From Escherichia coli (lineage in GTDB: Bacteria > Pseudomonadota > Gammaproteobacteria > Enterobacterales > Enterobacteriaceae): a stretch of DNA of 64,000 nt. The position numbers are program-made. Positions 17,201 through 26,200 of the stretch are shown here, piece after piece (within the stretch, counting starts at the first letter, position 1; each line of letters starts with the position of its first letter). The stretch is taken from the NCBI RefSeq assembly GCF_045037415.1, contig NZ_CP173438.1; one strand, 5' to 3'.

Positions 17201-20200
17201 CCTTCAATCAAGTCGGGACGGCCAAAAGCAAGCTTTTGGCTCCCCTCGCTGGCGCTCGGCGCCCCTTATTTCAAACGTTAGACGGCAAAGTCACAGACCG
17301 CGGGATCTCTTATGACCAACTACTTTGATAGCCCCTTCAAAGGCAAGCTGCTTTCTGAGCAAGTGAAGAACCCCAATATCAAAGTTGGGCGGTACAGCTA
17401 TTACTCTGGCTACTATCATGGGCACTCATTCGATGACTGCGCACGGTATCTGTTTCCGGACCGTGATGACGTTGATAAGTTGATCATCGGTAGTTTCTGC
17501 TCTATCGGGAGTGGGGCTTCCTTTATCATGGCTGGCAATCAGGGGCATCGGTACGACTGGGCATCATCTTTCCCGTTCTTTTATATGCAGGAAGAACCTG
17601 CATTCTCAAGCGCACTCGATGCCTTCCAAAAAGCAGGTAATACTGTCATTGGCAATGACGTTTGGATCGGCTCTGAGGCAATGGTCATGCCCGGAATCAA
17701 GATCGGGCACGGTGCGGTGATAGGCAGCCGCTCGTTGGTGACAAAAGATGTGGGGCACTGTTGCAAAGTTAGCGATGAGGCAGCCTTTTGTCTTATTCAA
17801 AGGCCTTACATTTCAAAAACTCTGCTTACCAGGCGCATTTCGCCCAGGGGATCACCATAATAAAATGCTGAGGCCTGGCCTTTGCGTAGTGCACGCATCA
17901 CCTCAATACCTTTGATGGTGGCGTAAGCCGTCTTCATGGATTTAAATCCCAGCGTGGCGCCGATTATCCGTTTCAGTTTGCCATGATCGCATTCAATCAC
18001 GTTGTTCCGGTACTTAATCTGTCGGTGTTCAACGTCAGACGGGCACCGGCCTTCGCGTTTGAGCAGAGCAAGCGCGCGACCATAGGCGGGCGCTTTATCC
18101 GTGTTGATGAATCGCGGGATCTGCCACTTCTTCACGTTGTTGAGGATTTTACCCAGAAACCGGTATGCAGCTTTGCTGTTACGACGGGAGGAGAGATAAA
18201 AATCGACAGTGCGGCCCCGGCTGTCGACGGCCCGGTACAGATACGCCCAGCGGCCATTGACCTTCACGTAGGTTTCATCCATGTGCCACGGGCAAAGATC
18301 GGAAGGGTTACGCCAGTACCAGCGCAGCCGTTTTTCCATTTCAGGCGCATAACGCTGAACCCAGCGGTAAATCGTGGAGTGATCGACATTCACTCCGCGT
18401 TCAGCCAGCATCTCCTGCAGCTCACGGTAACTGATGCCGTATTTGCAGTACCAGCGTACGGCCCACAGAATGATGTCACGCTGAAAATGCCGGCCTTTGA
18501 ATGGGTTCATGTGCAGCTCCATCAGCAAAAGGGGATGATAAGTTTATCACCACCGACTATTTGCAACAGTGCCGTATTTCCCCAGTTCTGCCAATACCTG
18601 CTCGTCGGCGGCCGTTAGTTTTAGCCATTCCAGCGCATATAACCCTTTTTGTCCGCAAAGACGTCTGGCAATCTCATGGCTCACATCTTGTTTTTCCGGC
18701 AACAATAACGCAACCAGCGGCTGATGCCAGGCGGGTATGTTTCCGAGAGCTGCAATCAGTTTGTCGGCGCAGCGCTGCCATACATCGTCATTTGCTAGTG
18801 AGAGATGTTTACGCAGACGCATTTCAACCGAGGCAAAGCGTGACAGATAGCCAGGCTGCTTGTTATCCGGGGTAAACGTAATGAGGTGGGCATCATAATT
18901 CCAGTCAAAGCGGATGGCTTGCAATGCAATGACAACCTCAGTGGCATATTCCAGACCACCCTCCTGGACAATTTGATCCATTAACTCTTCGTGATCGTTG
19001 CGATTGAAGCCTTGTTCCAGCGCAACCAGTACCGCCAGAACCATCGGTGGTAGTGCGGTGCTAATCGGTGAGTCGATAAGGCCCACTGCTTGTGTAATCG
19101 CCTGCTGCCAGTCCAGTGAACAGGTGCTGTAATCGAAGGTGATCACCTTTTTAAAACGCCGGTGAGTATGCGCGGCGACGGAGCGTAGCAGAGTTAATTC
19201 ATTCTCCTGTGGCACAGAATCGCCAGGCCAGCGTCGATGACTTAGTGTGGTTGGTGCGACCTCTGTCGGTAAAATGATTTGGGCGTCGTCTGCCAGCCAG
19301 GGAAGGTGGTCTTCAGCAAATGGTGGTTTGTCTTGCGGCAAAGGGGCTTTTTCAGAGCATGCGATAACCTGGACGGGGGCAGATGTCGGTGTCGTCACGG
19401 ATACTTCTTCTGCGTAGCCCTTTTTCGTTTTCTCCGCAATCAACTTCAGCTCCGCTTTTTCCGCCGCCGCCGCATCAGCAAAGCTTTTTATCTGGCTTTG
19501 CCCGTTAGTGCCGACTTTGCCCCAACTGATATGCAGTTCATTTTCCTGCTGCTCTACTGCCCAGAATTTATGTGATTTTTCGTCCTGATAAATATAGGTT
19601 TTCATTGCTAAATCCTTTTAATCAAACAGTGATTCAATGTCGTTAATGAGTTCGCTGGCGGTGATGTCGTCGAGCGCGGAAAAAGTGAGTGAGGATTGTT
19701 TACCGTAGCGATTATCAGGCGAGGTGATTTTTACGCTTTCAACCGGTAGCTGGTCGCCATACCCCGTTTCACCATAAATTAATGAAAAAGGTTCTGTTTC
19801 AAGTTCGAGATCGCCATAAGGAGTAGATTTGCGCATCGCGTAAACGCTGCCGCTTTCTTCCAGACGTTGCCAGCCTCGGCGTTCCAGCCCGACAATGCGC
19901 CCGGCCTGGCAAAGACGTCCTTGCCAGCGTATCAATTCATGGGAATCACGTTCATTATCAGCAAGGTGGTAATAACCACGATCGAGTTGGCGGAACGGAG
20001 GAAGCTGTTCGTAATCAGTATAAATTTGCCCAAATGCAGCGGCGGATTCAGGAGATATTTCCAGCACATGCGGAATACCGATGTTTCCTGCTGGCAACGT
20101 AAATAGCTCATCCTGCGCATCGCTGTAAGTGCTGTCTTCTGCGACCCGGAAGCAGGCAATCAGCGTGTTTTCCTCAGTATATACCCCCCATAACAACCGT

Positions 20201-23200: not shown

Positions 23201-26200
23201 TGCACGTTTGCAGAAGCATTTTCCACATAGCCTTTTTTCGTTTTCTCTGCGATCAGCTTAAGCTTTGCTTTTTCCGCCGCCGCAGCATCAGCAAAGCTTT
23301 TTACCTGGTTTTGCCCGTTAGTGCCGACTTTGCCCCAACTGACATGTAACTCGTTGCCTTGCTGCTCCACCGCCCAGAATTTATGTGATTTTTCGTCCTG
23401 ATAGATAAAGTGTCTCATTCTGCATCCCTGTAATTTTATCCAGTTGAATGCAGATGCTACCAGTATTTATGCGGGTTAGAGAGAGACAAAATCGCAAGAG
23501 AACAACTTTAGGAATTTATAAAGAAAAGGCGCTGTCGATGCAGCGCCTTGAAGGGGGATTATTTCACCTGATGACCCGGTTTAGCACCGGCATCCGGGCT
23601 TAGCAGGAAGATATCTTTCCCACCAGGACCAGCAGCCATTACCATGCCTTCGGAGATACCGAAGCGCATTTTACGTGGTGCCAGGTTAGCCACCATAATG
23701 GTGTGACGACCAATTAGTGCTTGCGGATCCGGGTAAGCAGAACGAATGCCGGAGAAGACATTGCGTTTTTCACCGCCGAGATCCAGCGTCAGGCGCAGCA
23801 GTTTGTCAGAACCTTCAACAAACTCTGCGTTTTCAATCAGCGCCACGCGCAGGTCAACTTTAGCAAAGTCGTCAAAGGTGATGGTTTCCTGAATCGGATC
23901 ATCTGCCAGTGGGCCAGTTACTGGCGCGGCAGCGGCTTTTACTTCCTCTTTGGATGCTTCCACCAGTGCTTCAACCTGTTTCATATCGATGCGGTTATAC
24001 AGCGCCTTGAATGGATTCACTTTATGGCCCAACAGCGGTTGCTGGATACCATCCCAGGTCAGTTCTGTATTGAGGAATGCTTCTGCGCGCTCGGTCAGTT
24101 TCGGCAGTACCGGTTTCAGGTAAGTCATCAGCACGCGGAACAGGTTGATGCCCATTGAGCAAATCGCCTGCAGATCGGCATCGCGACCTTCCTGCTTCGC
24201 CACCACCCACGGAGCCTGTTCATCGACATAGCGGTTAGCCAGGTCAGCCAGCGCCATGATTTCACGGATAGCTTTACCAAATTCACGGCTTTCCCACGCT
24301 TCGCCAATCACTTCAGCGGCATCAGTGAAGGTTTTGTACAACTGCGGGTCAGCCAGCTCGCTTGCCAGCACACCGTCAAAACGCTTATTGATAAAGCCAG
24401 CGTTACGGGACGCCAGGTTAACCACTTTGTTCACGATATCGGCATTCACGCGCTGAACGAAATCTTCCAGGTTGAGATCGATATCATCAATGCGCGATGA
24501 CAGTTTGGCGGTGTAGTAGTAGCGCAGGCTGTCGGCGTCAAAATGATTCAGCCAGGTGCTGGCTTTAATAAAGGTGCCGCGAGACTTGGACATTTTCGCG
24601 CCGTTCACCGTCACATAGCCGTGAACAAACAGGTTGGTCGGCTTGCGGAAGTTGCTGCCTTCCAGCATGGCAGGCCAGAACAGGCTGTGGAAGTAAACGA
24701 TATCTTTACCGATGAAGTGATACAGCTCGGCAGTGGAATCTTTCTTCCAGTATTCATCGAAGCTTACGCTGTCGCCGCGCTTGTCACACAGATTCTTGAA
24801 AGAGCCCATATAGCCAATCGGTGCGTCCAGCCAGACATAGAAATATTTGCCCGGCGCGTTCGGAATTTCAAAACCGAAATAAGGCGCGTCGCGGGAGATA
24901 TCCCACTGTTGCAGGCCAGATTCAAACCACTCCTGCATTTTATTTGCCACCTGCTCCTGCAACGCACCGCTGCGGGTCCATGCCTGCAGCATTTCGCTGA
25001 AAGAGGGCAGATCAAAGAAGAAGTGTTCAGAATCACGCATTACCGGGGTAGCACCAGAAACCACCGATTTCGGCTCGATCAGTTCAGTCGGGCTGTAGGT
25101 CGCGCCGCAGACTTCGCAGTTATCGCCGTATTGATCCGGGGATTTACATTTCGGGCAGGTGCCTTTTACAAAACGGTCCGGCAGGAACATGCCTTTTTCC
25201 GGATCGTACAGCTGAGAGATGGTGCGGTTTTTAATAAAACCGTTTTCTTTCAGACGAGAGTAGATAAGTTCTGACAACTGGCGATTCTCTTCGCTGTGCG
25301 TCGAGTGATAGTTGTCATAGCTGATGTTAAAGCCTGCGAAATCAGTCTGATGTTCCTGACTCATTTCGCCAATCATCTGCTCCGGGGTGATACCAAGCTG
25401 CTGAGCTTTAAGCATGATCGGCGTGCCGTGGGCATCGTCGGCGCAGATGAAGTTGACCTCGTGGCCGCGCATTCGCTGGTAACGGACCCAGACATCAGCC
25501 TGGATGTGCTCCAGCATATGGCCGAGGTGGATTGAGCCGTTAGCGTACGGCAGTGCGCACGTCACCAGAATTTTCTTCGCGACTTGAGTCATAGTAGGCA
25601 TTACTTCTTAATAGTGAAAAGGGCTTAGATAGTACCAAATGGGAAAATGTTAAGTAAGTACTTCTCTATATTCTTCAGGTAAACTATCAGCTGATGGTTT
25701 ATCTATACAAAAAAGGAGTCGGGATGAACGAACAATCCCAGGCCAAATCACCAGAAGCCTTGCGCGCAATGGTCGCCGGGACACTGGCCAATTTTCAGCA
25801 CCCAACCCTGAAGCATAACCTCACAACGCTGAAAGCGTTGCACCATGTCGCCTGGATGGACGACACGCTGCATGTGGAACTGGTCATGCCATTCGTCTGG
25901 CATAGCGCGTTCGAAGAGTTAAAAGAGCAATGTAGCGCCGAACTGCTGCGCATCACCGGAGCGAAAGCTATCGACTGGAAACTGTCGCATAACATAGCCA
26001 CTCTGAAACGCGTGAAGAATCAGCCGGGAATTAACGGCGTGAAGAACATTATCGCGGTCAGTTCCGGTAAAGGTGGCGTGGGTAAATCCTCCACGGCGGT
26101 AAACCTGGCGTTGGCACTGGCGGCAGAAGGGGCGAAAGTCGGCATTCTGGACGCCGATATCTACGGCCCATCAATCCCTACCATGCTGGGCGCAGAAAAT

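Follow-up and report, generated by a model that had tools for sequence, protein, structure and literature searches.

Sequence evidence for gene conversion and an old deletion between tandem WGR-DUF4132 paralogs beside metG of Escherichia coli

Two neighboring genes of Escherichia coli that differ over most of their length begin with closely similar DNA, which raises the question of why these beginnings have stayed alike and whether recombination between them could account for the smaller number of genes found at the same place in strain K-12. The two genes, here called geneA and geneB, encode proteins of the “molR” kind with a WGR and a DUF4132 domain and are located between metG and yehI in a 64-kb window of E. 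coli DNA (64,000 nucleotides of NCBI RefSeq contig NZ_CP173438.1, assembly GCF_045037415.1). Coordinates are positions in this window unless a locus label is given, and nucleotide (nt) numbers within geneA and geneB are counted from the start codon. The window lineage carries three tandem paralogs, geneA, geneB, and yehI, compared with two in K-12. The original prediction, made from the sequence of the window alone, was that recombination between the WGR-coding starts would delete one gene and leave a chimera, and that this could account for the K-12 arrangement as well as for homogenization of the WGR domains by gene conversion. The analysis described below makes it highly probable that selection and gene conversion together keep the WGR-coding starts alike and that a crossover between the two copies produced the molR chimera.

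The first copy of the repeat is located at 23227–23418 (minus strand; codons 1–64 of geneA) and the second at 19414–19605 (minus strand; codons 1–64 of geneB), and both encode the WGR region. Each stretch forms the first 64 codons of an open reading frame (ORF), both ORFs are on the minus strand, and the copies are in direct orientation with a start-to-start distance of 3,813 bp, all of which agrees with the predicted arrangement of direct repeats 3.8 kb apart. A repeat search returned the pair as a direct-repeat family of 199 nt. Alignment of the two stretches was gapless, with 166 of 192 nt matching (86.5% identity), and the E value of the pair was 3e-62 when geneA was compared with the window by blastn, so that chance similarity can be dismissed. 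The longest perfectly matching blocks in the window copies were 33 nt, at gene nt 77–109, and 32 nt, at gene nt 16–47. The ends had been called near-identical over about 190 bp; they are real and gapless over 192 nt, but this wording was too strong for copies with 26 mismatches and differences at 8 of the 64 encoded residues. The pair had also been presented as two genes, which is correct for the intact geneA; the other one, “gene 1,” is the 5′ fragment of a geneB that is truncated because an IS26/blaCTX-M-15 transposon, of a kind typical of ST131 clade C2, has been inserted in it.

The bodies of geneA and geneB were compared by protein-guided codon alignment. Codons 1–64 showed 86% nt identity, 88% amino acid identity, and a proportion of synonymous differences (pS) of 0.45, and the corresponding values for codons 65–128 were only 46% nt and 32% amino acid identity. 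Identity therefore falls abruptly at the end of the WGR domain, directly after codon 64; whether there is such a sharp drop past the repeat was the check proposed with the original prediction. In the remaining N-terminal half, nt identity was 37–54%, and in the conserved C-terminal region it was 61–74%, with up to 81% amino acid identity and saturated pS values of 0.7–0.9. Overall, the bodies are approximately 45% identical in protein. No Rfam match was found in 18400–23700, and a reading of the conserved stretch as a promoter was discarded, as promoter-like sites did not exceed the expectation from shuffled sequence.

According to Pfam analysis, the WGR domain (PF05406) spans residues 6–69 of geneA (E value, 4e-19) and residues 7–67 of geneB (E values, 4e-19 to 1e-18). 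The DUF4132 domain (PF13569) was found near the C-terminus of geneA (E value, 2e-49), of intact geneB (1e-52), and of yehI (2e-47); the geneB 5′ fragment of the window lacks it owing to the IS26 cut. yehI contains DUF4132 but no WGR domain. It had been considered as a third copy of the repeat and was rejected, given the missing WGR domain and the absence of any DNA match to the repeat at its 5′ end. None of the defence-system models of PADLOC-DB matched the seven proteins searched (geneA, geneB, yehI, and yehL/M/P/Q) at an E value of 0.01 or lower, and the sole NCBIfam match was a sub-threshold one, of the WGR region to a Leptospira family.

The relationships among the paralogs were analyzed in species-representative genomes obtained by a taxon scan. 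Neighbor-joining trees of the gene bodies grouped the sequences by paralog, with an A clade that included geneA of Klebsiella oxytoca (bootstrap, 100%) and a B clade (89–100%). In the tree of the 5′ 192 nt, for which bootstrap support was computed directly as split frequencies, the sequences grouped by genus. Escherichia geneA, geneB, and the chimeric genes described below formed one group with a bootstrap of 100%, or 93% once the ends were trimmed; support for a clade uniting all geneA sequences was 0%. When third codon positions of the segment were used alone, the split of the Klebsiella group was recovered at 95%. Identity in the 5′ segment was 81–90% between geneA and geneB of Escherichia and 81% between geneA and geneB of K. 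oxytoca; between Escherichia and K. oxytoca, it was 74–79% for geneA with geneA and 73–76% for geneB with geneB.

Polymorphism in the segment was determined in 12 three-gene Escherichia genomes (10 E. coli, Escherichia whittamii, and Escherichia sp. E1V33). From nt 18 to nt 165, there were no fixed differences between geneA and geneB and 16 polymorphisms shared by them; fixed differences were confined to nt 1–17 (three sites) and nt 166–192 (two sites). The mean identity among geneA starts (89.1%) equaled that between geneA and geneB starts (88.7%). Between geneA and geneB of the window, pS was 0.45 in the 5′ segment and 0.72–0.74 in conserved C-terminal blocks, and residues conserved between the two proteins were encoded by the identical codon in 72% of cases in the 5′ segment vs. 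47% in the C-terminal blocks (Fisher p = 0.0013). The predicted homogenization of the WGR domains by gene conversion thus gains support from the genus-wise tree of the 5′ segment, from the 16 shared polymorphisms beside no fixed difference, and from a pS of 0.45 as against 0.72. Taken together, these patterns are those typical of concerted evolution through gene conversion, in addition to strong purifying selection.

Among the alternatives, the one that survives best is that purifying selection alone has kept both 5′ ends alike at the DNA level without any exchange. The WGR domain is indeed under strong purifying selection, with a proportion of nonsynonymous differences (pN) in the segment of 0.06, and WGR domains of distant phyla, as far as Bacteroidota, are still 58–63% identical to this one. 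However, selection on the protein predicts no sharing of synonymous states between paralogs of the same genus, and the segment not only groups by genus rather than by paralog, also at third codon positions, but contains the shared polymorphisms of nt 18–165 without a fixed difference. Moreover, C-terminal blocks with 81% amino acid identity have pS values of 0.71–0.89, compared with 0.45 in the 5′ segment. Selection without exchange is therefore considered a very unlikely account of the similarity.

The second part of the question concerns the two-gene arrangement. K-12 and UTI89 contain only two genes at this place, a molR-like gene and yehI. The 45 nt 5′ of the start codon are identical in geneA of the window and in the chimeric genes of K-12 and UTI89, and the first codons of the chimera are of the geneA type (MRHF; the geneB start is MKTY). 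With the alleles VCSW_A and EC10_B as parental types, the informative sites of K-12 molR followed geneA as far as nt 161 (17 of 20 sites) and geneB between nt 168 and nt 300 (all 78 sites), and the gene was 94.4% identical to the geneB allele EC10_B over the full length. The switch point is at approximately nt 137–146 in UTI89-type alleles and before approximately nt 100 in JNE112863-type alleles. The proposal that recombination deletes one gene, leaves a chimera, and explains K-12 is consistent with this order of geneA upstream sequence, A-like sequence to nt 161, and B-like sequence thereafter, which supports the interpretation of K-12 molR as a geneA 5′ end fused to a geneB body. The K-12 arrangement does not apply to the window itself, which retains three paralogs, one of them broken by the transposon.

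The K-12-type junction, scored as colinear over at least 80% of a 1,100-nt probe, was present in 3,660 of 5,426 complete E. coli genomes (67.5%), and the geneA body was present in 1,681 of them (31%). A second match to the geneA body was seen in some genomes; we guess that it comes from the 3′ end of geneB, where a short stretch is similar, rather than from a duplication.

To decide which arrangement came first, gene order in other taxa is informative. The order geneA, geneB, yehI adjoining metG was found in E. whittamii, Escherichia sp. E1V33, K. oxytoca, and Klebsiella spallanzanii; there are two genes in Klebsiella grimontii and a single one in Erwinia and in Intestinirhabdus. The geneA and geneB bodies diverged before the split between Escherichia and Klebsiella. 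As the order is common to other genera and the A and B bodies form ancient clades, the three-gene state is older and the two-gene state is derived. The reverse history, in which the two-gene form is original and geneA was later inserted or acquired beside metG, a similar 5′ end being copied at that time, would suit the majority status of the two-gene form in E. coli (3,660 of 5,426 genomes) and the single gene of Erwinia. It is contradicted by the same order beside metG in the four taxa named above and by the single clade (100%) of Escherichia and Klebsiella geneA bodies, according to which geneA predates the genus split. In addition, the two-gene form has the geneA upstream sequence and geneA-like nt 1–161, which would be unexpected if geneA had never been present, and this history can hardly be credited. 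The same must be said of a co-adaptation of the WGR domains to a shared partner that differs between genera, through parallel amino acid change and not DNA exchange: genus-specific residues (e.g., KSF/KKGY in Escherichia vs. KTF/RKGY in Klebsiella) and the position of both genes beside the same yehLMPQ genes would fit it, but the 95% genus-wise split at third codon positions alone, the synonymous polymorphisms common to geneA and geneB within Escherichia, and the chimeras with breakpoints inside the segment, which show that DNA exchange occurs, would not.

Under the preferred explanation of conversion and crossover, homologous recombination between the direct copies would repeatedly move short patches, approximately nt 18–165, from one gene to the other by gene conversion, and purifying selection on the WGR domain would also hold the 5′ ends alike. 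The paralog-specific differences at the repeat edges (nt 1–17 and 166–192) may reflect a need of conversion tracts for flanking homology at either end. If the copies crossed over, the exchange would remove the geneA body, the 12-nt spacer, and the geneB start (3,813 bp in the window genome) and would join the upstream region of geneA, presumably with its promoter, and the geneA 5′ end to the geneB body. The product would be molR of K-12, together with its counterpart in about two thirds of E. coli genomes. The agent is presumably RecA-type homologous recombination. The minimum homology for RecA-dependent recombination in E. coli is roughly 25 nt, and the 33- and 32-nt blocks exceed it. At 86% identity between the repeats, such events would be kept rare by mismatch repair, and the lack of recent products fits such a limit. 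Neither conversion nor deletion is recent in the window lineage, in which geneB has since been interrupted by the transposon.

Several observations weigh against this explanation or restrict it. First, geneA and geneB starts from the same genome were not significantly closer (89.2%) than those from different genomes (88.7%; permutation p = 0.065), so that the exchange must be old or have been blurred by recombination between strains. Second, the window copies are only 86.5% identical, and since they differ at 26 sites, there has been no recent conversion in this lineage. Third, part of the similarity reflects protein constraint, as seen in the 58–63% identity retained by the WGR domains of distant phyla. 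Fourth, all seven sampled two-gene genomes share a single B-type body (VEQAKD type); the deletion may have occurred only once, and for this reason, “recurrent” deletion is not established for E. coli. Finally, none of the 5,426 complete E. coli genomes had the junction that a crossover within the ST131 (sequence type 131) haplotype should produce. Overall, the deletion by crossover probably happened once or a few times, long ago, after which the allele spread and recombined, and we infer a single origin for the chimera.

The window matches ST131-type genomes. Over the query, it and E. coli THO-003 were 100% identical, and O25b:H4-ST131 strains fell in the class of at least 99% identity. The uninterrupted relative ECKH-100 has the order metG, geneA (3,801 nt), geneB (3,762 nt), yehI (3,633 nt). 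In the window, geneA (19618–23418, minus strand; 3,801 nt) is the intact paralog adjoining metG, and its product of 1,266 amino acids with WGR and DUF4132 domains matches WP_001215662.1 of ST131-type genomes at 100% identity; K-12 lacks the geneA body. The metG–geneA intergenic region (23419–23558, minus strand) is 140 nt long and contains the metG terminator hairpin, seen as a terminator-like site at 23549–23526. The spacer from the geneA stop codon to the geneB start codon (19606–19617, minus strand) is only 12 nt, which fits an operon or coupled translation and leaves geneB without an upstream region of its own. The short spacer and the metG terminator imply that geneA, geneB, and yehI are all expressed from sequence lying 5′ of geneA, and a fusion of geneA with geneB would therefore leave their regulation unchanged.

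The 5′ fragment of geneB (18574–19605, minus strand) comprises nt 1–1032 of 3,762 and was 100% identical to the intact geneB of ECKH-100 by megablast. An ORF of 352 amino acids at 18547–19605 corresponds to these nt 1–1032 and reads on into the IS26 end, and the THO-003 annotation describes the fragment as an incomplete WGR domain-containing protein lacking its C-terminus. The 3′ fragment (3233–5969, minus strand) comprises nt 1026–3762, includes the DUF4132 region, and was also 100% identical to ECKH-100 geneB. Between the two fragments lies an IS26-bounded composite resistance region of 12.6 kb (5970–18573) with IS26 terminal repeats at 5970 and 18573 and seven nt of geneB (1026–1032) present on both flanks. 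The region holds five copies of IS26; its repeated ORFs of 240 amino acids had been taken for IS1, and the window for Shigella, readings that were dropped when a genome search pointed to IS26 and to E. coli ST131. At this insertion, the THO-003 annotation lists blaCTX-M-15, blaOXA-1, aac(6′)-Ib-cr, aac(3)-IIe (aac(3)-II), and a truncated catB3. Biggel et al. (2022; PMC9334617) reported the transposon TnMB1860, with blaCTX-M-15, blaOXA-1, aac(6′)-Ib-cr, and aac(3)-II, from ST131 clade C2 sublineage L1a, where it is located in the metG/DUF4132/yeh region. The insertion at 5970–18573 matches TnMB1860, with which it has the insertion site and, in the matching genome THO-003, the resistance genes in common.

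The third tandem paralog, yehI (1–3223, minus strand), is represented by nt 1–3223 of 3,633 and was 100% identical to yehI of THO-003. Its protein starts with MDKELPWLADNA, at the PWLAD motif, which in the geneA and geneB proteins comes after the linker.

Further variants of the locus were observed in other taxa. In K. grimontii (locus L014, 10001–13720), a geneB-type body was found 145 nt past metG behind geneA-type upstream sequence, an arrangement that suggests a separate loss of geneA within Klebsiella. In the single metG-adjoining gene of Intestinirhabdus alba (locus L016, 4059–7898), a WGR domain and a linker precede a yehI-type body, the join being at PPWLADDAQL. Its body was 62% identical to Klebsiella yehI in protein, and its WGR DNA was 86–87% identical to Klebsiella geneB-type copies; the gene represents either yehI in its ancestral form or a further fusion. 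In Escherichia sp. MOD1-EC7003 (locus L011, 95–3541), the gene at the geneA position, whose start is lost at the contig end, was 39% identical to geneA and 46% identical to geneB, and it may represent a fourth paralog lineage. A 433-nt contig labeled Xanthobacter autotrophicus AM3 (locus L019) was 100% identical to the start of E. coli geneA, had a very low coverage (0.78), and is almost certainly E. coli contamination.

The locus is also variable among E. coli strains. Between strains, geneA was 86–99.9% identical, and the neighboring metG was 95–98% identical. For nt 193–1200 of geneB, identity ranged from 51 to 100%, with at least five allele types and a short form of 3,033 nt. This variability is unusual for a chromosomal region of E. 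coli and suggests long-lived alleles or diversifying selection. On the basis of the divergence at geneB nt 193–1200, one could also imagine a hypervariable cassette (geneB nt ~193–1950) held between two recombination anchors, namely the WGR-coding start and the conserved 3′ half of geneB, with whole recognition modules being swapped between alleles and paralogs in a diversifying, conflict-type system, although we regard this as rather unlikely. The members of such a system may include the WGR-DUF4132 proteins, a MoxR-like ATPase, a VWA protein, and a SWIM protein. If this were true, the 5′ repeat would belong to a layout that generates diversity instead of being a passive relic.

Decay of the paralogs was seen repeatedly. 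Pseudogenes were found for molR in K-12, for geneA and geneB in ERL03-1416, for geneA in EE72d, for yehI in CH4796, and for both genes in PU-1, and larger deletions have fused yehI with yehM in EE72d and joined geneA to yehQ in E500002 (H69). The decayed or deleted members are located at L003 6402–10197, L005 6212–13019, L006 6817–8991 and 12808–16604, L004 1630–5261, and L043. The locus seems to be dispensable in many lineages.

These findings bear on how the region is annotated. The K-12 molR pseudogene, which has long been listed as a “molybdate metabolism regulator,” would be a fusion of two older genes, and K-12 lacks a 3.8-kb gene that is still carried by approximately 31% of complete E. 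coli genomes. The locus offers a structural marker with two states, three-gene (31%) and chimeric two-gene (67%), which could aid the annotation and comparison of the metG–yeh region. It is in this region, too, that blaCTX-M-15 has entered the chromosome of a major ST131 sublineage. More generally, a single conserved domain-coding block would suffice to link diverged paralogs by gene conversion and to fuse them.

In the literature on molR, yehI, and DUF4132, no account of the repeat, the conversion, or the chimera was found; only work on the ST131 transposon was. The study of TnMB1860 deals with the transposon and with the epidemiology of the lineage and not with the paralog repeat or its recombination history (PMC9334617). 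The process itself is well known, and the present locus can be set beside several established cases.

Concerted evolution of duplicated genes by gene conversion is known from tufA and tufB of Salmonella and E. coli. As in that pair, paralogs within a lineage are closer here than orthologs between lineages, homologous recombination is the process involved, and synonymous divergence is lowered. Unlike in tufA and tufB, only a 5′ patch of approximately 150 nt has been homogenized, leaving the other 95% of the genes free to diverge, and the homogenization is loose (81–90% rather than >99%). Furthermore, the copies are adjacent and in direct orientation, so that a crossover deletes rather than inverts.

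Fusion genes formed by unequal crossing-over of tandem paralogs are known from hemoglobin Lepore, a delta–beta fusion, and from the babA/babB chimeras of Helicobacter pylori. The molR chimera resembles them in that the upstream paralog has supplied the 5′ part and the upstream region and the downstream paralog the body, with the breakpoint in the region of homology and the intervening DNA lost. It differs from them in that the homology is a single domain-coding block of approximately 190 nt and not gene-wide, and in that most of the species has come to carry the fused allele (67% of complete genomes), the K-12 copy later becoming a pseudogene. No new mechanism is involved, and the locus is a further, modest example of recombination between related neighboring genes.

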